Source: an uncultured delta proteobacterium | Lineage (GTDB): Bacteria > Desulfobacterota > Syntrophorhabdia > Syntrophorhabdales > WCHB1-27 | Direction: 5' to 3' | DNA: 64,000 bases | NCBI GenBank assembly: GCA_963810935.1 | Contig: CAWEPK010000008.1 | Location: 32,001 to 96,000 of the forward strand | In this document: positions 1 through 9,132 of the stretch, in pieces | Position numbering within the stretch: the first letter of the stretch is position 1 | Layout: every line of letters starts with the position of its first letter | Program-made: the position numbers and the translations under genes | The notes under the pieces: generated by a model | Seen by the model: only the letters and a program-made list of their open reading frames with translations | Told to the model about the DNA's origin: nothing | Database searches by the model: none

Positions 1-372
1 TACAGGCCGCCCGTACGCGCTTCCGTTCAGCACGGGCACGCCGCCGTTCTATTGTCTTTCTCGATTACCTGTTTTTGCCTTCCGACCTTCGACTTCCCGG
101 CCGTAGGCTATGGACGGCCCTATCGGCGCCGGGCGGGGAAGGTGGAGGGGCTCATTGAAGGTCGCACGGACCTCCACGCAATCGATCAGATCGACATTTT
201 GCTTAGATAGAGCACTCTATGAAACCTCCATTGCCATCAAAGTATAACTAGGTTATTAGTATCATACTGCGGTGGAAGAATCAAGGGAAGGCTGCGCAGG
301 ATAGGCTCATGTGCCTTTAGCGACTGTGCGAGGTTTGTAATTAGATGCGCCCGGCGCGCGGCGATTTTTTAA

Positions 373-401
373 TTGACATGACGGGTAAAGGGGTTTAAGT
401 T
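373..401 (+). promoter_or_regulatory. sigma70 promoter of the porin leader
   Basis: TTGACA (373-378), 17 nt spacer, TAAGTT (396-401). Confidence 0.65.
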
Positions 402-433
402 TAAGAAAATTTGGGTAGGAAGGTGTGTGCGCA

Positions 434-517
434 ATGGAAGACGACCCTGGCGGTCATATACAACTCGGTTGGAGCGGTGGACATGCTGCAGCTTCCGGGT
501 GTCGTCGGACCCTCTGA
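434..517 (+). CDS. putative leader peptide MEDDPGGHIQLGWSGGHAAASGCRRTL (27 aa)
   Basis: ATG with upstream GGAAGG; first 22 nt identical to the leader ORF upstream of mgtA; stop codon lies in a hairpin loop. Confidence 0.7.
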   Translation: MEDDPGGHIQLGWSGGHAAASGCRRTL

Positions 518-725
518 GAGTTCCGACCACTCCCGGTCCGGATAGCGTCTCCTCCGGGAGAGGATCGTATCATGTATTCCCCAAACCACTCTTCTGACTG
601 GCTCCAGCCATAGAAACAAAATATGAATTTGCTGGTATCAGCGATCAACCTGCGGGCAGCATGCCGCTTATCGGCGTGCCGTTCAAGTCTGTGAGATATG
701 CCGTCCGCCCGCAACAGAAGGAGAC

Positions 726-2105
726 GTGGAAGTGCGATTCTGCATTCGCCGGAAGACAGGCTTGTTCATTCTGGCCCTGGGCGCCCTCGCGGCGCTGGCG
801 GCTCCCGGCCTCGTGCGCGCCGCCGACCCCCAGTCCTCCCTTCCCCCCTGGTTCCCCCAGCTCTTAGGCGCACAGGTAAACGGGGTCTACCAGAACTCCC
901 CTTCCTTCCATAGCCCGTACACGGGAGACAAGAGCTTCATCTTCGATCATAGCTTCAAGCAACAGTTGACCCATGTCTACGGCCTCTATTTAGGCTCCCA
1001 GATAACACCTTCACTCCAGGCATACGGTGACTTCGAGATGTTTCGGGGGTCGGGCATAAGCAACGGCATTGGTTTGGGCGGTTTCAGTAATGCGGACGTC
1101 ATAAGGGCAGGGCCTGCCAATTTAGGCCAGGAGCCCTACCTTGCCCGCCTCTATGCCAGATACGTCATCCCCTTATCGAATGCCGTGACGGACCCGGTAG
1201 AGAGGGGCATGGACCAGATACCGGGTAGCCAGGCTGCGGACCGCATAGAGATAAAGGCAGGCAAGCTCGCCCCTACGGACGACTTCGACCAGAACCGCTA
1301 TGCCAATAACGGCCGCACGCAGTTCATGAACTACGACTTTTTATTTAATACGGCCTGGGACTATGCATCCGATACAAGGGGATACTCCATAGGCTTCTCC
1401 GCCGCTCTTGTCCATCCCACGTGGAGGCTTATCTTAGGAAGCTACCAGGAGCCTACATCCAGAAACGGCATGAACCTGGACAATAATATCTCCAAGGCCA
1501 GAGGGGACCAGATGGAGCTTGACCTGGCGCACTGGGAGAAGGGCCCCGTAGTCCGCCTTTTAGCCTTCAGGAACGAAGGGAGGATGGGCGACTACAGGGA
1601 CGCCATCGCCTTAGGTGCATTAACAGGTAACGTACCCGACACCACCCTCAACGGGCGGCCCGGCCACGTCAAGTACGGCTTCGGCTTAAACATAGAGCAG
1701 CCCCTTGCCAATGACGGGGACACGGGCATCTTTGCAAGGTTCGGCTGGGCCAACGGGAATAACTCCAACTGGTCCTATACCGAATCCGACAGGCACGCAA
1801 GCACAGGCGTCCAGATAAGCGGCAAGAACTGGGGCAGGCAGGAGGACCAGGCAGGTCTGGCCTTCGGCCTGAACGGCATCACGTCCTCCCATCAGCACTA
1901 CCTCCAGCAGGGAGGCATAGGCATGCTCGTAGGGGACGGGACGCTGAACTACGGCCTGGAGCAGGTGACGGAGGCCTACTACAGGATACAGGTAGGCAGG
2001 TACGTGCAGATAAGCCCCGACTTCCAGTACATCTGGAACCCTGCCTACAACAAAGACAGGGGGCCGGTGCAGGTCTACGGGATGAGGATGAGGGTGTACT
2101 ACTAA
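726..2105 (+). CDS. OprB-family outer-membrane porin, MnoP (divalent cation porin)-like
   Basis: Signal peptide; motifs YLARLYARY, FDQNRYAN..RTQFMN, AWDYASDTRGY, C-terminal EAYY...SPDFQYIWNPAYNKDRGP and terminal aromatic residue. Confidence 0.8.
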   Translation: MEVRFCIRRKTGLFILALGALAALAAPGLVRAADPQSSLPPWFPQLLGAQVNGVYQNSPSFHSPYTGDKSFIFDHSFKQQLTHVYGLYLGSQITPSLQAYGDFEMFRGSGISNGIGLGGFSNADVIRAGPANLGQEPYLARLYARYVIPLSNAVTDPVERGMDQIPGSQAADRIEIKAGKLAPTDDFDQNRYANNGRTQFMNYDFLFNTAWDYASDTRGYSIGFSAALVHPTWRLILGSYQEPTSRNGMNLDNNISKARGDQMELDLAHWEKGPVVRLLAFRNEGRMGDYRDAIALGALTGNVPDTTLNGRPGHVKYGFGLNIEQPLANDGDTGIFARFGWANGNNSNWSYTESDRHASTGVQISGKNWGRQEDQAGLAFGLNGITSSHQHYLQQGGIGMLVGDGTLNYGLEQVTEAYYRIQVGRYVQISPDFQYIWNPAYNKDRGPVQVYGMRMRVYY

Positions 2106-2164
2106 CTACCGGGTGGTTGGTGGTGATAAAGGCAAAGGCGGATGTTGTGGCGGGGTTTGGACTC

Positions 2165-2286
2165 GCCGCATGGAGGATACTCCCTCTGCGGCGCACTGTT
2201 CGCCTTGCGCCCTACGACGTACCTGCGTACGCCTCCGGGCGGCAAGGCTCCCATTGCATCCGCACATGAAGCATCCTCCATGCGGC
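2165..2286. repeat. nested palindromic intergenic element (CGTAC..GTACG core)
   Basis: Perfect 14-bp IR GCCGCATGGAGGAT/ATCCTCCATGCGGC enclosing inner stems; related copy at 12301-12420. Confidence 0.6.
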
Positions 2287-2371
2287 TCCTCCGACCACGG
2301 CTGCAATTGGACCGAGGGCCAATTGCAGCAACTGCGGGTGGGAAGTAATTGTAGGGCGGCTATTTACTTCC

Positions 2372-2399
2372 GCCATTCCGGCGGAAGCCGGAATCCAGG
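2372..2399. repeat. REP-like palindrome CATTCCGGC-GGAA-GCCGGAATCC
   Basis: ATTCCGGC/GCCGGAAT stem, resembling the widespread GTCATTCCCGCGAAGGCGGGAATCC repeat family. Confidence 0.5.
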
Positions 2400-2431
2400 G
2401 TTGAGGGGCTGTGGAGCGGCCCTGAGGCTCG

Positions 2432-3241
2432 TTATTTTTTTTGCGCTGCCTTTGAGATAGCTACCCGTATCGCGAGGCAATCGTACACCACACGGTCGGC
2501 CTGGTAGACGACGGTTCCCCGGCTCACTACGCGCCACCCTCCGTTTTCATAAACGCCGTTGGACGCAAGCGCTTCGATGAGGCCGGGTGCGGAATCGAGG
2601 GATTCCACGAGACCGGGGTTCTGGGCAAGGACCACGTATTTCATGCCTGGGGCAGTCACCAGGGTCAGGGGCTCGATCAGAAGGCTCGACAAATCAGGCG
2701 CTACCTCTTCCGCGACAGTGGCCCTGGCCTGGAGCTGGATCATCCTCGCCCTGGTGTCGGGCCCGGCCGTTTCCTTCGCGGAGCTTATGAGATCGAGGAG
2801 GTCGTCCCGGACCTCGTTCAACTCCTTGACAGAGCGCCACTTCTCAGCCCCTTCATAGGCCGTGAGGGCCTTGGCCAGCATGGAGACCTCTCTCAGGTAG
2901 TGGTTCCGCTGGTTCGCGGGCACGAGATACATGGCGATGACAGAGACCGGGACGCCGTCGGGAGCGCCGTAATCGATCCCTGTCGGGCTCCAGCCCACAA
3001 CGCACATCAAGTCTTCTTCGAAGGGCACCCGCGCGTGCGGGCATGCCCAGCCTTTTCCGATTGACGTGTTGAACGAGGTCTCCCTCGACATTACCAGTCC
3101 CACCACATCGGTCCCGGAGGGCACTGACGGGATTGCTTCGAGGATGTGGGCGAGGACGCGCAGGGCGTCATCCTTGTCATTGTCGGGCAGCTCGATCAGC
3201 CTGCCTTCCTGAAGTGCGTCGAGAAGGGTGTCCATAATCAA
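2432..3241 (-). CDS. PTS IIA (PtsN/fructose-mannitol type) domain protein with C-terminal extension
   Basis: RE..FNTSIGKGWACPHAR (phospho-His motif), GIDYGAPDG.PV; overlaps the mgtA stop. Confidence 0.8.
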   Translation of the reverse strand: MIMDTLLDALQEGRLIELPDNDKDDALRVLAHILEAIPSVPSGTDVVGLVMSRETSFNTSIGKGWACPHARVPFEEDLMCVVGWSPTGIDYGAPDGVPVSVIAMYLVPANQRNHYLREVSMLAKALTAYEGAEKWRSVKELNEVRDDLLDLISSAKETAGPDTRARMIQLQARATVAEEVAPDLSSLLIEPLTLVTAPGMKYVVLAQNPGLVESLDSAPGLIEALASNGVYENGGWRVVSRGTVVYQADRVVYDCLAIRVAISKAAQKK

Positions 3242-5955
3242 TAACCTCCGTACCGTTTAAAGAACCACGTTTTGACGAGGTGCGTCAGGGTGGCGTACGA
3301 AAAGAGGAAGAAAGCGATCCATGCCCAATAAATAGGCGGCAAAGGCACAAACCCCAAGGTAGGCGCGAACGACGAATAGGGCAGCCAGGCGCCGATAGCC
3401 ATCACGAGGATCGTCATGAAGGTCATCGGCATGGACGCGTGGCTGCCTATAAAGGGTATCCGGCGGGTCCTGATGATGTGGACTATCAGCGTCTGGGTCA
3501 GAAGGGATTCCACGAACCATCCCGTATGGAAAAGCCTCGCGGCGGCCTCGCCCGCCAAAGGCCCCGCGCCTGCATAGCCCCGGCACCCGAAAAAGAACCA
3601 CATCAGGGCAAAGGTCGCGTAGTCGAAGATCGAGCTAACCGGCCCTATGAACACCATGAAGCGTTTTATATTGGCTATGTTCCACTTGAGTGGTTTTGTG
3701 ATCTGCTCGGGGTCAACGCTGTCTGTCGGTATGCCGGTCTGGGAAAAATCGTAGAGCAGGTTGTTCAGAAGCACCTGTATGGGCAGCATGGGCAGGAAGG
3801 GCAAGAGGTAGCTGGCGCCGACTACGCTGAACATGTTCCCGAAGTTAGAACTTGCTCCCATCCGTATGTATTTCACTATGTTGGCAAAGACCTTCCGGCC
3901 TTCGATGATGCCCTCGGCGAGAATCAGCAGGCTTTTCTCAAGAAGCACGATGTCCGCCGACTCCTTGGCGACATCGACTGCCGAGTCGACTGATATGCCT
4001 ACGTCTGCCGCCCGGAGGGCCGGCGCATCGTTGATCCCGTCTCCCAGGAACCCTACAACGTGCCCGTTAGACCTGAGGTTGCGGACGATCTCCTCCTTTT
4101 GCGTCGGGGTAAGCTTGACGAAGACATCGGTCTCCCGCACGGTCCTGGAGAAGTCCTCTGCCGACATGGCGGATAGCTCCCCGCCTGTAATGATGGTCTC
4201 TGCCAAAAGGTCGACGTCCCTGCACACCTTTTGCGTGACCAGATAGTTGTCCCCGGTCAGCACCTTCACTTTTACGCCTGCCTGGCTCAAAAGGTCCAGC
4301 GCTTCCGCGGCCTCGGATTTCGGAGGGTCGAAAAATGCGATATACCCGAGGAGGATCATCGCCGATTCGTCGCCGGCCGTGAAAATGCTCTTGTCCCTGG
4401 GAAACTCACGGTATGCGATGCCCAGCACCCGGAAGCCGTCCGTGTTGAGCCTGTCGACCTCCTCGAACAGGTCTGCCCGGATCATTGGGATCAGAGGGTA
4501 CACCTCATCGCCGATCTGGTAGTGGGTGCAGCATGCGTAGATTTCCTCTACGGCCCCTTTGCAGATGAGGACGTTGTCGCCCTCGTAATCGACGACGACC
4601 GACATACGGCGACGCTGAAAGTCGAACGGCAGCTCGTCCACGAGGGTGCAGTCCCGCTCCACGTCGAGGTCCGCGTGCTCGAGCACGGCGCGGTCGATCA
4701 GATTGCGAAGGCCCGTCTGGTAATAGCTGTTCAGGTACGCGTAGGTCAGCACGTCGGTGCTCGGATGGCCGATGATGTCGACGCTGCGCTCCAGCACGAC
4801 CTTGTCCTGGGTGAGAGTACCCGTCTTGTCGGTGCAGAGGATGTCGATGGCGCCGAAGTTCTGGATCGAAGGAAGGCGTTTGACGATGACCTTTTCCTTA
4901 GCCATGGCGAGGGCGCCCTTGGCCAGGTTCACCGTTACGATCATGGGCAACATCTCGGGGGTAAGGCCGACCGCGACCGAAAGGCCGAAGAGAAGGGCTT
5001 CCAGCCAATCGCCCTTGGTCATGCCGACGATGAAGAAGACGGCGCAGACCAGGACGGTCATGTACCTGATCATGAGCCAGGTAAAGGAACGGACGCCCTG
5101 GTCGAAGCTAGTTTCTTCCCTCTCCCCCGCCAGCCGCTCGGAGATAGCCCCGAAGATAGTGTGCGCCCCGGTGTTTATCACAAGCCCCCGGGCGGAGCCG
5201 CTGGTGGCCGTGGTGCCGAGAAAACAGGCGTTCGGCAGCTCCAGGGCGGAGTGGCGCGGGACGTCTTCGGCGTCCGCTGTTTTTTCCACCGCCATCGACT
5301 CGCCGGAGAGGGCCGATTGGCTGACAAAAAAGTCTTTCGTCCAGAAGAGGCGCAGGTCTCCGGGGATGAGCGACCCTGCCTGGAGTAGCACCACGTCGCC
5401 GGGCACGACCTCGGATATCCTTATCTCCACCGCAGCCCCGTCTCTGAGTACGACGGTCCGTGACTGCACGCGTTTCCCAAGGGACTCGACGGCACGGTTC
5501 GAGCGGTTGTCAAGGACGTAGGAAAGGCCTACGCTGAGAAGGACCATCGCGCCGACGATGAAAGACGACCTGATCTCGCCGATGACGCCGGAAACAACGG
5601 CTATAACCAGAAGCTGGATAACCAGGGGGCTTTTGCAGCGATGGAGAATGTCTGCAAAAAAACCGACGTGCCGTGTGTGGGAAAGCTCGTTGGGCCCGTA
5701 TTCGTCCAGCCGGCGTTCGGCCTCTTCGCTATTGAGGCCCCCCGGGGTCGTCCCAAGGACCTTTACGGCCTCGGATACAGGCACTACGCAAAGGTCGATG
5801 AGGCGGCGTTCATCCTCCGGGGTATTGCGGTGATTATTGGCCGCTTGAGGGTCGCGCCTGGACTTATTCGAGAGGTTGGTAAATACGCCCTTGTTCGTTT
5901 TGCAGCCTCCGCTCTTCCCCGGGTGCGCGACGGACCCCGAGACAGGCATGAACAA
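3238..5955 (-). CDS. mgtA: Mg2+-transporting P-type ATPase (IIIB); exact start uncertain
   Basis: SGES, AVGLTPEMLP, DKTGTLT, ELPFDF.RRRMSV, GDGINDAP, SSNFGN, NLLYD, TGWFVESLLTQ. Confidence 0.95.
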   Translation of the reverse strand: MFMPVSGSVAHPGKSGGCKTNKGVFTNLSNKSRRDPQAANNHRNTPEDERRLIDLCVVPVSEAVKVLGTTPGGLNSEEAERRLDEYGPNELSHTRHVGFFADILHRCKSPLVIQLLVIAVVSGVIGEIRSSFIVGAMVLLSVGLSYVLDNRSNRAVESLGKRVQSRTVVLRDGAAVEIRISEVVPGDVVLLQAGSLIPGDLRLFWTKDFFVSQSALSGESMAVEKTADAEDVPRHSALELPNACFLGTTATSGSARGLVINTGAHTIFGAISERLAGEREETSFDQGVRSFTWLMIRYMTVLVCAVFFIVGMTKGDWLEALLFGLSVAVGLTPEMLPMIVTVNLAKGALAMAKEKVIVKRLPSIQNFGAIDILCTDKTGTLTQDKVVLERSVDIIGHPSTDVLTYAYLNSYYQTGLRNLIDRAVLEHADLDVERDCTLVDELPFDFQRRRMSVVVDYEGDNVLICKGAVEEIYACCTHYQIGDEVYPLIPMIRADLFEEVDRLNTDGFRVLGIAYREFPRDKSIFTAGDESAMILLGYIAFFDPPKSEAAEALDLLSQAGVKVKVLTGDNYLVTQKVCRDVDLLAETIITGGELSAMSAEDFSRTVRETDVFVKLTPTQKEEIVRNLRSNGHVVGFLGDGINDAPALRAADVGISVDSAVDVAKESADIVLLEKSLLILAEGIIEGRKVFANIVKYIRMGASSNFGNMFSVVGASYLLPFLPMLPIQVLLNNLLYDFSQTGIPTDSVDPEQITKPLKWNIANIKRFMVFIGPVSSIFDYATFALMWFFFGCRGYAGAGPLAGEAAARLFHTGWFVESLLTQTLIVHIIRTRRIPFIGSHASMPMTFMTILVMAIGAWLPYSSFAPTLGFVPLPPIYWAWIAFFLFSYATLTHLVKTWFFKRYGGY

Positions 5956-6092
5956 TGAAACCCCTTGCCGGAAAGGAACTTAACCGGCCGGGAAAATGTT
6001 CTTTACTTCAGCGTCTGTTGCTTATCTGTCTTAGGAGCGAATGAGGAGAGTTTTCCCCTGATGCCGCCCGGGCTCAGGGGGAGATAAGAAGG

Positions 6093-6173
6093 CTAACGAA
6101 TCTTCCCGTAGTGCTGAGGAGGAGCGGCTTCGCTCCGACCAAACCAAGTAGGACCGCCAGGGTCGTCTTCCAT
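6093..6173 (-). CDS. putative MgtL-like leader peptide MEDDPGGPTWFGRSEAAPPQHYGKIR (26 aa)
   Basis: ATG with GGAAAGG RBS, between the promoter and mgtA; acidic-Pro N-terminus; 4 Pro codons. Confidence 0.75.
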   Translation of the reverse strand: MEDDPGGPTWFGRSEAAPPQHYGKIR

Positions 6174-6215
6174 CAAGGACCTTTCCATAGTGTAGTATTA
6201 CAACAACTCCTTCGA

Positions 6216-6244
6216 ATTCTAATTCATATAAGCTCTTTGGTCAA
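6216..6244 (-). promoter_or_regulatory. sigma70 promoter of the mgtA leader
   Basis: TTGACC, 17 nt, TAGAAT on the minus strand. Confidence 0.75.
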
Positions 6245-6259
6245 CAAAAAAATAAGCCC

Positions 6260-6289
6260 TTGCCTTCATTAATGTTATCTTTTTATAAT
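6260..6289 (+). promoter_or_regulatory. sigma70 promoter of the divergent redox/nrdJ genes
   Basis: TTGCCT, 18 nt, TATAAT. Confidence 0.5.
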
Positions 6290-6317
6290 ACTTATCGCGG
6301 CGAGAGGGAGGGAGCCC

Positions 6318-6791
6318 TTGGACGAAGGGATATCGATAACGATTGATGCGAGCGTCTCGGAAGTCATCGAGAAAAGAGGCATAAGGCGGGAAGACGTCGT
6401 AATGGTCCTGGCATACGCCCAGGAGACAGGGAATTTCTTCGCAAACGGCTCGGGGGAGCGTCGCCTGGCCTATCGGAAGGCGGAAAAAACGACGTTCTGG
6501 GTTGAATACGCGAGGGAGGGGGACGGGTACAGGGCCCTGTGCGCCTACTCCCATCGTATGGAGATACTGGAAGGGCTCAACATGCCGGCCGGGCCCAGGG
6601 ACGAGAAAATCGATTGGCTCTGCGCCCGGTGCCGTAAGGCCCTGGAGTGGGCCACCGTGAAACTGGCGTACCTGGACGAGACCTTCGCTGCGGACATCCC
6701 TGCCTGCCCCTCCTGCCAGCGTCCCCTCGTGAGCGAGGAGAACGCAGTCGGGAAGATGGCGCTGGCCGAAAAAATGCTGGAAGACAAATAA
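6318..6791 (+). CDS. DVU_1557-like Cys-rich redox protein with extra N-terminal domain
   Basis: CARC and CPSC motifs, C-terminal GKMALAEKMLEDK; TTG start with GGAGGG RBS. Confidence 0.65.
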   Translation: MDEGISITIDASVSEVIEKRGIRREDVVMVLAYAQETGNFFANGSGERRLAYRKAEKTTFWVEYAREGDGYRALCAYSHRMEILEGLNMPAGPRDEKIDWLCARCRKALEWATVKLAYLDETFAADIPACPSCQRPLVSEENAVGKMALAEKMLEDK

Positions 6792-6804
6792 AGGAGCCGT
6801 TCCG

Positions 6805-7257
6805 ATGGAGCGCGTTATCAATCTCAGCGGAAGAGAAATGGACATCATGGTCCTTACGCATAAAGGCTACTGTTGCAGCCAGGTGATGGCCATCCTCATG
6901 CTGAGGGAGATGGGGCGGGAAAACCCCGACCTCGTAAGGGCCATGGGCGGCCTCTGCTACGGTATCGGGTACTCGGGCGAGATGTGCGGGGCCCTGTCGG
7001 GCGGGGCGTGCCTTATATCCCTCGTTGCAGGCAAGGGCGAAGACGGCGAATCCCCCAAAGAAAAGATGCCCCTCATGCTGAGCGAGCTTGTCGATTGGTT
7101 CAGGGAGAAGGTGCAAGGCCCTTACGGGAGCGCGAAGTGCGACGATATCCTGGGGTCGAATGCCGACAAAAGGCCCTGCATGGCCCTTATCGCGGAAACA
7201 TACGACAAGACAATGTCGATCCTCAAAGCGCATGGGATAGGACCGGCTGCGGCCTGA
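6805..7257 (+). CDS. C-GCAxxG-C-C family (DVU_1555-like) putative redox protein
   Basis: GYCCSQ, GEMCGALSGG, two further Cys. Confidence 0.8.
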   Translation: MERVINLSGREMDIMVLTHKGYCCSQVMAILMLREMGRENPDLVRAMGGLCYGIGYSGEMCGALSGGACLISLVAGKGEDGESPKEKMPLMLSELVDWFREKVQGPYGSAKCDDILGSNADKRPCMALIAETYDKTMSILKAHGIGPAAA

Positions 7258-7327
7258 ACAGTCGTCCACTTTACGTGGTCTGGAGACCGGCCTTATGTTA
7301 CCTTCAGGGGCACCCGAAGGAGCGGAC

Positions 7328-8974
7328 ATGGTAACGCTCGACGAGAACGCGCTGCTAGTCCTTAGTAAAAGGTACCTCGTCAAGGACGAGACAGGGGAGC
7401 CGGTCGAGACGCCGGACGGCCTCTTCCGCCGTGTCGCGGAGCACGTGGCCGCTGTCGAGGACGGCTATCCGTCCGGGCGGCGCCGCGAGATGAGCGACGC
7501 TTTTTACCGGATGATGGCAGATCTCGAATTCCTGCCAAATTCCCCGACGCTCATGAACGCAGGCCGCCCCCTGGGGCAGCTTGCCGCATGCTTTGTCCTG
7601 CCCGTTGAAGACTCCCTCGACTCGATCTTCGACCAGGTAAAGCTGACCGCCAGGATCCACCAGACAGGCGGCGGCACCGGTTTTTCCTTCTCCCGCCTCA
7701 GGCCGAAGAACGACGTGGTGAGGTCCACGACGGGGGTGGCGAGCGGTCCGGTCTCCTTTATAAGGGTCTTTAATTGCGCGACCGGCGTCATGAAGCAGGG
7801 CGGGACGAGGCGGGGCGCCAACATGGGAGTGCTCAGTATCGACCATCCCGACATAGAGGAGTTCATAACGGTCAAGAAGGACCCGGCGGAGCTTACCAAC
7901 TTCAACCTGTCCGTCGCCGTGACGGACGAATTCATGCAGGCATTCGAGGCGGGCCGCGCATTCCCTCTCGTTAATCCCAGGACCGGCAAGGAATCGACGA
8001 AGGTAGACGCACGAGGACTCCTGATGTTGATTGCGGAATCCGCCTGGTCCTCCGGCGAGCCCGGAGTGATCTTTATCGATACGGTCAATAAGGCTAACCC
8101 CACGCCCCGCATAGGAGAGATTGCCGCCACCAACCCCTGCGGAGAGCAGCCGCTTCTGCCCTATGAATCATGCTGCCTTGGGTCTATCGACCTGGCTAAG
8201 ATGGAAAGAGACGGGGACGTGGATTGGGACAGGCTAAAGCGGCTGACGCACCTCGGCGTGCGGTTCCTCGACAACGTGATTGACGCGAGCGTCTATCCGG
8301 CAGAAGAGATCGCCGCCATTACGAGGTCGAACAGGAAGATCGGCTTAGGCGTCATGGGTTTTGCGCACCTGCTGATCCGTCTCGGCATACGGTACGACTC
8401 GGATGAGGCCGAAAAGCTGGGCGGCAAAATAATGGAATTCATCCAGGCGGAGTCGAAGGCAGCGTCCGGTGAGCTTGCGGGGGAGCGCGGCCCGTTCCCT
8501 AATTTTAAGGGGAGCGTGTGGGACAATAAGGGCCTCCCCCAGCGGAACGCAACCACGACCACGGTGGCCCCTACCGGCACACTGAGCATTATCGCAAATA
8601 CGTCGAGCGGCATAGAGCCGATCTACGATGTGGCGTACAGCAGGCTGATCCTCGGCGGGATAGAAGTGCACGTGGACGACCCGCTGTGGCGCAGTATCAA
8701 GGGCCGGCCCGACGCCGCGAACGCTATGGACAGGCTTTTCCGCAAGGCTTACCAGGTAGCCCCCATCGACCACCTGCGGATACAGCGGGCCTTCCAGGAG
8801 CACGTGGACAACGCTGTGTCGAAGACCATCAACCTGCCCGAGACGGCCACGCCGGACGAGGTGCTCGACATCTACGTCCAGGCCCACCGGATGGGCCTGA
8901 AAGGCACTACGATCTTCAGGAACAAAAGCCGCGATTACCAGATACTCTCCTGCGGTACGCACCAGATCTGCTGA
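7328..8974 (+). CDS. nrdJ: adenosylcobalamin-dependent (class II) ribonucleotide reductase, short form
   Basis: PNSPTLMNAG..QLAACFV, GGGTG, TNPCGEQPL, VAPTGT, AVSKTIN, LKGTT; ATG with GGAG RBS. Confidence 0.9.
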   Translation: MVTLDENALLVLSKRYLVKDETGEPVETPDGLFRRVAEHVAAVEDGYPSGRRREMSDAFYRMMADLEFLPNSPTLMNAGRPLGQLAACFVLPVEDSLDSIFDQVKLTARIHQTGGGTGFSFSRLRPKNDVVRSTTGVASGPVSFIRVFNCATGVMKQGGTRRGANMGVLSIDHPDIEEFITVKKDPAELTNFNLSVAVTDEFMQAFEAGRAFPLVNPRTGKESTKVDARGLLMLIAESAWSSGEPGVIFIDTVNKANPTPRIGEIAATNPCGEQPLLPYESCCLGSIDLAKMERDGDVDWDRLKRLTHLGVRFLDNVIDASVYPAEEIAAITRSNRKIGLGVMGFAHLLIRLGIRYDSDEAEKLGGKIMEFIQAESKAASGELAGERGPFPNFKGSVWDNKGLPQRNATTTTVAPTGTLSIIANTSSGIEPIYDVAYSRLILGGIEVHVDDPLWRSIKGRPDAANAMDRLFRKAYQVAPIDHLRIQRAFQEHVDNAVSKTINLPETATPDEVLDIYVQAHRMGLKGTTIFRNKSRDYQILSCGTHQIC

Positions 8975-9132
8975 CGAAAGAACCTGCGTAATAATTATAA
9001 GAGATGCCGTCGCGCCGGAGGTGCCTCCGCCTCCGCTTCCCGCTGATCTTGTCTGCCTGAAGCAGGGTACATACATTAGGCGTAACAAAAAAGGGCGGCG
9101 ATGAGCGCCGCTTTTCGTGAAGGAGGCAATCA

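Follow-up and report, generated by a model that had tools for sequence, protein, structure and literature searches.

We analysed a window of 64,000 nucleotides (nt) from an uncultured delta proteobacterium of the order Syntrophorhabdales (contig CAWEPK010000008.1, positions 32,001 to 96,000), in which two short open reading frames (ORFs), both opening with codons for MEDDPGG, precede a gene for an OprB-family porin and mgtA, the gene for a magnesium-translocating P-type ATPase. Judged by sequence, these are putatively translated ORFs in the 5′ leaders of Mg2+ transporter genes, and the comparison of relatives places them within a covarying RNA switch with two predicted states. The leader appears to work like that of enterobacterial mgtA with its leader peptide MgtL, yet lies outside both the MgtL RNA family and the M-box riboswitch family. 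We suggest that it is a translation-coupled Mg2+ attenuator working like MgtL, turning genes on when Mg2+ is scarce, a reading whose chances we consider evenly balanced. An earlier note on this DNA had proposed an MgtL-like leader family serving both genes; the leader family, the conservation of its ORF and the Mg2+-related gene set hold up, while the RNA switch and a nucleotide-level constraint on the start of the ORF were not foreseen.

The two leaders share the 22-mer ATGGAAGACGACCCTGGCGGTC, which was found at 434-455 on the forward strand and at 6152-6173 on the reverse strand, as the earlier note had it. No third copy with up to three mismatches occurs in the window (0 of 100 shuffles gave any match); in the 4.06-Mb assembly a degenerate 20-mer is present exactly twice, at the window copies, with no match to the reversed-pattern control, and no antisense copy of the block was found in this genome. 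The 22-mer makes up the first 22 nt of leader ORF 1, upstream of the porin gene (434-517, forward; MEDDPGGHIQLGWSGGHAAASGCRRTL, 27 codons and TGA; block at 434-455), and of leader ORF 2, upstream of mgtA (6093-6173, reverse; MEDDPGGPTWFGRSEAAPPQHYGKIR, 26 codons and TAG; block at 6173-6152), so that the ORF lengths first read from the sequence stand. Another ATG, at 6188, precedes leader ORF 2 in the same frame by five codons. The proposed spacing is also borne out: ORF 1 ends 208 nt before the porin ORF, and ORF 2 ends 137 nt before the mgtA ORF.

The leader ORF is conserved as an ORF. We assembled 43 distinct leaders, which span 10 genera within a single order (related records labelled Syntrophorhabdales). 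The ATG is kept in all of them; GGAG or GAGG, the core of a Shine-Dalgarno (SD) sequence, lies at −18 to −6 in 39, and the four exceptions, both window copies included, are still purine-rich; and frame 0 reaches a stop at codon 21-35 in 42, against 10 and 9 for the other two frames. The peptide begins MEDDPGG in 36 leaders, MEDDPGS in two, and MEEDPGG, MDDDPGG, MEDDPDG, MEDDPNG or MEGEPGG in one each; EDDP is present in 40 of 43, and the EEDP, DDDP and EGEP variants retain at least two acidic residues and Pro5. Within codons 2-7, third positions have an entropy of 0.285 bits, and first and second positions 0.072 bits each. The conservation has a sharp edge, starting exactly with the first base of the ATG (1.7-1.8 bits at −1 to −3) and ending at nt 22-23, beyond which come the hypervariable codons 8-11, with 1.72 bits per nt. 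Had this been a DNA operator or a pure RNA motif, the earlier note reasoned, nucleotides would be conserved without frame, ATG or ribosome-binding site (RBS); the relatives instead retain ATG, SD, frame and length, which across 43 leaders supports a leader family of its own in a lineage of non-enteric anaerobes.

The conserved peptide comprises only the first seven residues, with no peptide conservation past residue 8. The gapless likeness of the two window peptides, described earlier as extending to G12 and S14, therefore holds for those seven residues; the likeness at G12 and S14 stems from an RNA helix. In the leader L062, from a record labelled Syntrophorhabdus aromaticivorans UI, this helix, which covers the “WS” codons, lies 2 nt out of frame register, yet both the helix and a 22-codon open frame are retained, marking the likeness as an RNA feature. 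A functional small protein was rejected on the same 2-nt shift together with the lack of peptide conservation after position 8.

The family was recovered both from its peptide and from its RNA. The pattern ATGGARGAYGAYCCNGGNGG, allowing at most one mismatch, matched in 20 of 41 related genomes (17 of 21 in the window's family, 2 of 14 in the sister family f4, 0 of 5 in two other families), and the reversed-pattern control in none. From this pattern 27 of 30 loci are ORFs of 14-35 codons starting ME(D/E)DPGG or MDDDPGG; L022, L024 and L030 were rejected as chance matches, having no ATG or lying inside ORFs of 103-207 amino acids. A 22-base degenerate pattern searched over 185,579 species genomes returned 34 stretches, of which 23 are leaders, all in records labelled Syntrophorhabdales, Syntrophorhabdaceae, “delta proteobacterium” and the like. 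The other 11, from other phyla, lack a Shine-Dalgarno sequence or lie within long ORFs; we rejected them as chance matches, and their number is about that expected from the information content of the pattern.

The covariance model R1, built on nt +30 to +165 only and so excluding the SD, the ATG and the MEDDPGG codons, re-finds the family, and its matches carry the ORF. In the window's genome R1 returned both window leaders and one spurious match (E 0.06), and it matched in 25 of the 96 genomes of the order: 18 of 21 in the window's family, 6 of 69 in f4 and 0 of 5 elsewhere. Outside the order, a 151-genome sample of the phylum gave it just two matches, of 21-23 bits, which both appear to be coding sequence and lack the ORF. 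All nine leader matches inspected, seven of them new and two already known (L004 and L036), are preceded at 28-31 nt by an ATG with its SD; a match at a contig start (G011:C398) lay outside the inspected set. R1 also found leaders that the peptide pattern had missed: MEGEPGG before an OprB gene (L096), MEDDPNG before an MgtA gene (L085) and MEDDPGS before Nramp genes (L090 and L091). The weak matches L067 (E 0.06), L097, L098 and L101 lie in apparent coding regions where the ORF is absent, and were discarded. In metagenomes, an RNA-only pattern (helix H1 and region 3, described below) returned 94 stretches, of which 80 were retrieved and 79 analysed; 12 of the 79 have the exact 22-mer 37 nt upstream together with a 24-35-codon ORF, and the remaining 67 each mismatch the 22-mer at no fewer than 10 positions.

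The leader, about 200 nt long, can be drawn as two mutually exclusive folds, A and B, and the ORF passes through the 5′ strands of both. RNAalifold on the raw MAFFT alignment recovered just a 4-bp hairpin and helix H2:3; the other helices were drawn by hand from single-sequence folds, and their pairs were then counted. Fold A consists of local helices: H1 (GGAGCG with CGCTCC) inside the ORF; H2 (GATC....GATC), which holds the stop codon in most non-MgtA leaders; and H3, a long hairpin with an outer stem CTCCTC/GAGGAG and an inner stem GAGCC/GGTTC. Fold B comprises the long-range helix P0, in which GGTTGGAGC at the “WS” codons pairs with GTTCCAGCC some 140 nt downstream; H2:3, which joins ACCGCT to the AGCGGT of the H3 loop and inner arm and so breaks H3; and H4, the weakest, between the H3 3′ arm and a pyrimidine tract.

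All of these elements are present in both window leaders. In the porin leader (forward strand) the switch core spans 463-601 and scores 57.5 bits with R1, H3 lies at about 530-560, and the 5′ strand of P0, GGTTGGAGC at 467-475, forms nine pairs, one of them G-U, with GCTCCAGCC at 601-609, within a C-rich, G-poor tail. In the mgtA leader (reverse strand) the core spans 6022-6144 (76.6 bits); H1 joins GGAGCG at 6136-6131 to CGCTCC at 6126-6121, region 3 is GCGGC at 6067-6063, H3 joins CCCCTG at 6080-6075 to CAGGGG at 6060-6055, and P0 pairs 6136-6129 perfectly with its 3′ strand TTCGCTCC at 6041-6034. A further R1 match on the reverse strand of L013 (1597-1633) is the near-palindromic H3 read in reverse, and was rejected; a match in L010 (1104-1203) was left out.

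Both folds are supported by the counts of pairs. On alignment A2, fold A pairs 88.2% of cells (slid controls, 44-55%), and on the model-fitted alignment A5 90.3% (47-57%), with six of seven outer H3 pairs changing on both sides. Fold B pairs 85.4% of cells on A2 (38-51%), 18 of its 31 pairs change on both sides, and 0 of 500 shuffles reached any of these measures, a statistic that overstates significance and is not a probability, the 43 leaders being related members of 10 genera in one order. H2:3 pairs 92.9% on A5, which was not fitted to it (24-57%). Constrained folding makes the two folds near-isoenergetic, with a median difference (B minus A) of +2.9 kcal/mol and B lower in 11 of 26 leaders. 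In ensembles computed for 24 leaders, the free RNA favours P0 (0.46) and H2:3 (0.59); masking the ORF to 12 nt past its stop abolishes both and raises the H3 inner stem from 0.34 to 0.66.

The genes behind the leaders point to the signal. We took a census of 36 leaders, those derived from genomes, with main-gene start codons remaining uncertain and the metagenome leaders standing outside it. An MgtA-type ATPase follows 12 leaders (11 assigned by Pfam, L100 by tblastn), an Nramp transporter 15 (11 by Pfam, four by eye from their MYW(I/L)SK... N-termini), an OprB porin seven (five by Pfam, two by tblastn) and an MgtE-like protein with PRC and MgtE_N domains one (by Pfam); one leader runs to a contig end without a downstream gene. 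All 35 identified genes are thus of Mg2+ transporter type or porins, and none is an amino-acid gene, so that what had been noted as a pair of leaders before mgtA and a porin extends to an Mg2+-acquisition set of MgtA, NRMT-type Nramp, MgtE-like and OprB proteins. One of the seven porin genes is separated from its leader by an ORF for a 102-residue HMA_2 (heavy-metal-associated 2) protein (L011:1802-2107, forward). In one genome the mgtA and OprB leaders (L008 and L096, one place) lie back to back and diverge, about 200 nt apart (in L096, 1161-1296, reverse, and 1501-1638, forward, the porin copy encoding the variant MEGEPGG), whereas the window units converge, as the earlier note described.

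The Nramp proteins of the family score 110-146 bits against the MntH model, which has a cut-off of 430. For one of them, L021, the best solved match is 7qia (EleNRMT; E 1e-61), with MntH structures at 1e-16, and this single aligned protein has DAGG and TTIT at the NRMT signature positions; DNDAGG is also visible by eye in three further downstream Nramps. The NRMT signature has DxxG in place of DxxN in helix 1, and TxxA/T in place of A/CxxM in helix 6 (PMC8806188). By these sequence marks the L021 protein is a putative Mg2+ transporter of the NRMT type. The M-box, an Mg2+ riboswitch, has the gene set MgtA, MgtE and NrmT (PMC4072509). Because the genes behind our leaders match this set, the signal sensed by the leader is most likely Mg2+.

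How such a leader could work is suggested by E. coli, in which a Rho-dependent terminator stays accessible when mgtL is translated in full at ample Mg2+, whereas at low Mg2+ the ribosome drops off while synthesising EPDP, after which the RNA refolds and transcription of mgtA proceeds (PMC11282234). Translation is aborted within MEPDPT; more generally, windows rich in D, E and P directly after the start Met cause drop-off, which is enhanced by low Mg2+ and countered by long nascent chains and by bulky residues near the peptidyl-transferase centre (10.1101/2021.02.02.429294). MEDDPGG, with four D/E/P residues and the two smallest residues at the start of the chain, would fit these rules. At ample Mg2+, then, the ribosome would read the entire ORF and strip P0 and H2:3, so that H3 forms (fold A) and the C-rich tail is exposed; termination, Rho-dependent or perhaps intrinsic in some leaders, or occlusion of the main-gene RBS would follow, and the genes would be off. 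At low Mg2+ the acidic, proline and glycine start would destabilise a ribosome whose exit tunnel is still empty; translation would abort in the first codons, leaving the remaining ORF ribosome-free for fold B, and the genes would be on. Drop-off fits better than a long-lived arrested ribosome, because P0 needs a ribosome-free “WS” region and the leading edge of an arrested ribosome would reach about nt 34-39.

The geometry of the leader is consistent with such coupling. In 19 of 27 leaders the end of the stop codon lies 8-12 nt before the H3 5′ arm, so that a terminating ribosome would abut H3. The tail after H3, which holds the 3′ strands of H4 and P0 and is unpaired in fold A only, contains 35.7% C and 12.5% G, against 27.7% C and 30.7% G in the rest of the leader, and the genome has a rho gene (700 bits; cut-off 509). 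Leaders of the Nramp type have the start of their main gene some 70 nt further downstream, with a purine-rich SD that could pair with the pyrimidine tail (CCCCTC), a complementarity of generic purine-pyrimidine kind. The output step may thus differ between leader types. A scan for terminator-like sites scored none in the two window leaders.

Several points weigh against the attenuator. The evidence is comparative and thermodynamic throughout, and among public RNA runs none was listed for positions 200-6400 of the window; the leaders compared are related, as said above, and several assemblies carry frameshifts in the downstream genes. The assignment of fold A to off and of fold B to on would follow from physiological logic. 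H4 pairs only 74.5% of cells on A2 and has an ensemble probability of 0.09. A U-tract of 4-5 nt comes after H3 in the MgtA type and some of the other leaders and is missing from most of the Nramp type, so that the output step may be Rho-dependent termination, intrinsic termination or RBS occlusion. One R1 leader, L100, a near-duplicate of L029 from one assembly, is alone in lacking an intact ORF: a 1-nt insertion in codon 3 changes the peptide to MEERP and a stop. This insertion is possibly an assembly error, since the downstream mgtA is frameshifted too. Finally, the nucleotides of the 22-mer are under more constraint than the peptide demands, which the attenuator does not account for. CCT, GGC and GGT are each retained in 42 of 43 leaders, and the 22-mer is identical in 12 of 12 metagenome leaders, in contrast to the adjoining 10 nt at 1.72 bits per position. 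Such invariance suggests that the RNA, the DNA or the choice of codons is itself under constraint. On the synonymous bias that the earlier note had looked to, third positions in codons 2-7 are the more variable; counted as events, there were about seven nonsynonymous and about seven synonymous changes, although nonsynonymous sites are more numerous. Three of the seven or so nonsynonymous events are acidic-for-acidic swaps.

We found no covarying partner for the block in the leader alignments. The 22-mer is predicted to be mostly single-stranded except for the 4-bp hairpin GACC/GGTC, which is invariant and hence uninformative. Three candidate pairings of the block were rejected: GACGAC with GTCGTC, found in the Nramp and OprB types and missing from the MgtA type; GGTC with CGACC, likewise missing from the MgtA type; and GGCGGT with ACCGCT, uncompensated in L085, L090 and L091. 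A pairing of the SD with the H3 5′ arm was rejected as well, for it shows no covariation, L013 altering the arm and not the SD. The sensor possibly requires particular codons or tRNAs, or the first 22 nt are possibly important while the mRNA sits in the initiating ribosome; the block is possibly also read by a trans-acting factor, or is part of a metal-binding RNA. The last two lead to explanations other than the attenuator.

A metal-sensing riboswitch would place the 22-mer in an aptamer that binds Mg2+ or another cation directly, with folds A and B as its two states and the ORF as an incidental feature or one component of the expression platform. A pair of folds that exclude each other, both with covariation, is what such an element would have, a block near-invariant even at four-fold degenerate sites beside a hypervariable spacer would suit an aptamer, and the gene set equals that of the M-box, itself nearly absent from the order; the enterobacterial mgtA leader, too, was first described as an Mg2+-sensing RNA (PMC4072509). 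A riboswitch has no need, however, of conservation that starts exactly at an ATG 6-12 nt past an SD (ATG in 43/43, SD in 39/43), of a frame left open to a narrow stop window in 42/43 leaders against 9-10/43 for the other frames, or of third codon positions about four times as variable as first or second ones. The block is, moreover, mostly single-stranded by prediction besides its 4-bp hairpin, has no covarying partner that we could find, and matches no Rfam family. We regard a riboswitch as unlikely.

We think it more doubtful still that the 22-mer is read by a trans-acting factor (an RNA-binding repressor, a small RNA, or a DNA-binding regulator at about +25 to +50 from the transcription start), with translation of the ORF merely relaying the outcome. 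Invariance over 22 nt with sharp edges would suit a binding site, two GGA motifs about 12 nt apart (in the SD and in ATGGAAG) resemble CsrA-type sites, and the leaders share a conserved G-rich element right 5′ of the −10 box. But a long antisense RNA is unlikely given that the genome has no other or antisense copy of the block, the block is weakly palindromic (GACC-N5-GGTC), and no regulator gene is consistently linked to the leaders, their neighbourhoods not having been surveyed systematically. The coincidence of the block with codons 1-7, and its codon periodicity, would also go unexplained.

In Salmonella, proline sensing has been reported for the Pro codons of mgtL. The leader peptide here could likewise respond to a signal other than Mg2+, such as the charging of tRNA-Asp, tRNA-Pro or tRNA-Gly, the activity of EF-P, the proline or osmotic state of the cell, or ATP via an EttA-like factor. 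An attenuator of this sort could draw on the conserved D, D, P, G and G codons and on the modulation of E. coli MgtL translation by the ABC-F protein EttA (PMC11282234), but is very improbable, for 35 of 35 identified downstream genes encode Mg2+ transporters or porins and none an amino-acid function, each kind of codon occurs once or twice and never in runs, and the peptide lacks a PP motif, which is what would call for EF-P.

The leader resembles MgtL in three respects: a short ORF in an mgtA 5′ leader; an acidic and proline cluster directly after Met, with M1, E2, D4 and P5 common to MEDDPG and MEPDPT; and an ORF overlapping alternative RNA structures. Its C-rich tail, in a genome with a rho gene, would be compatible with the Rho-dependent output in E. 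coli. It also differs. MgtL has 17 codons, against 21-35 in this family; Gly-Gly follows the acidic block here, where MgtL has further prolines; the family serves a whole regulon (MgtA, NRMT, MgtE-like and OprB genes) rather than one gene; and it belongs to another phylum, with codons that are themselves almost invariant. Nor is there RNA homology to the Rfam models. The enterobacterial mgtA leader has a curated model in Rfam, named “Mg_sensor”, and a cmscan with 4227 families at E ≤ 1 gave nothing relevant in the window at 1-9000 or in six other leaders.

The M-box (ykoK, RF00380) serves the same gene classes, MgtA, MgtE and NrmT (PMC4072509), presumably with the same output; it needs no ORF, however, and our leaders have no sequence or structure match to it. 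It was found in one of the 96 genomes of the order, at a locus other than those of the family leaders. Since it occurs in that one genome only, the M-box and the MEDDPGG leader seem to replace each other in this order. That single M-box (L099, G014:C184:1030-1202; 149 bits) sits on a 2.7-kb contig of an assembly with 8% contamination and may be foreign. The trpL and hisL attenuators also let ribosome occupancy choose between competing helices, region 2 pairing with region 1 or 3. They differ from the leaders described here, which have no run of cognate codons, precede transporter genes, conserve their first seven codons rather than codons within region 1, and show a clear intrinsic terminator (stem and U-tract) in some members only.

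To our knowledge, ribosome-mediated Mg2+ sensing by a leader peptide is experimentally established only for enterobacterial leaders, MgtL being the case in point. In the literature covered, from which subscription journals were largely absent, we found no “MEDDPGG” leader, and none of the papers listed, judged by title or start of abstract, described a non-enteric mgtL-like family. We raise tentatively, as a possibility to which we would give rather less than an even chance, that the family is a ribosome sensor independent of MgtL, copied across a regulon in place of the M-box, in which nascent peptide, tRNAs or codons, and mRNA act jointly as the sensor. An unrelated family that applied acidic-proline logic to a full uptake regulon would make the principle general and convergently evolved, and a codon-level requirement (CCU-GGC-GGU) would be one not previously described for intrinsic destabilisation of the ribosome; why the codons themselves are frozen is the question that the family poses. 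With 43 natural variants, a member in the record labelled Syntrophorhabdus aromaticivorans UI and a two-state RNA, it offers a compact system in which this can be tested. The leader also links OprB-type porins and NRMT-like Nramps, otherwise annotated as sugar or manganese transport, to a regulatory signal and hence to a function that is likely related to Mg2+.

Upstream of the leaders, a good promoter and RBS had been claimed for each window copy, and this stands in part. The sigma-70-like promoter site of the mgtA leader (6216-6244, reverse; TTGACC-17-TAGAAT) scored 10 of 12 matches in a promoter scan, whereas that of the porin leader (forward; −35 TTGACA at 373-378, a 17-nt spacer, −10 TAAGTT at 396-401) was found by regular expression and fell below the threshold of the scan. 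Both Shine-Dalgarno-like sequences are weak: AGGAAGG at 417-423 (forward), 10 nt 5′ of the ATG of the porin leader, and GGAAAGG at 6180-6186 (reverse), 6 nt 5′ of that of the mgtA leader. They are the weakest of the family, most relatives having AAGGAG; 33 of 35 leaders show GGAG or GAGG between −16 and −13. The arrangement TTGACN-16..18-TAnnnT was matched by regular expression 60-71 nt 5′ of the ATG in 27 of 35. Outside the 22-mer the two window leaders have only two patches in common, a T-run with TTGAC and GGT.GGAGCG. Among the leaders a G-rich element (AAGGGGTT or GGGCTT) is conserved right 5′ of the −10 hexamer (385-395 in the window), as is a T-run 5′ of the −35 hexamer; these may belong to the promoter or mark where a regulator binds.

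Of the window's own genes, the porin gene occupies 726-2105 on the forward strand (Pfam PF04966, E 3e-32; start codon uncertain) and mgtA 3238-5955 on the reverse strand (TIGR01524 and Pfam; the start, the TTG of the longest ORF, is uncertain). The MgtA protein scores 1064 bits against TIGR01524, above the equivalog cut-off of 610.75, and so classes as a P-type ATPase of type IIIB. Elsewhere in the family, the downstream transporter genes of L009, L012, L020 and L100 are split by frameshifts, for which single-base indel errors are plausible, and about 600 nt upstream of one mgtA leader (L007:2113-2211, reverse) a match to the c-di-GMP-I-GGC riboswitch reaches 29 bits (gathering threshold 59) and is probably noise. 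The window's mgtA overlaps by 4 nt at its stop with a gene for a protein with a PTS EIIA-2 (PtsN-like) domain (2432-3241, reverse; PF00359, E 3e-17; NCBIfam matches below cut-off), and the two genes probably form one transcription unit. The 269-residue product has the domain at its N-terminus, and no domain was assigned to its C-terminal half. Between this unit and the convergent porin unit lies a long, GC-rich imperfect hairpin (2166-2285). Its sub-threshold Rfam match to MIR1437 was rejected as that of merely a long GC hairpin; the hairpin may be a bidirectional terminator.

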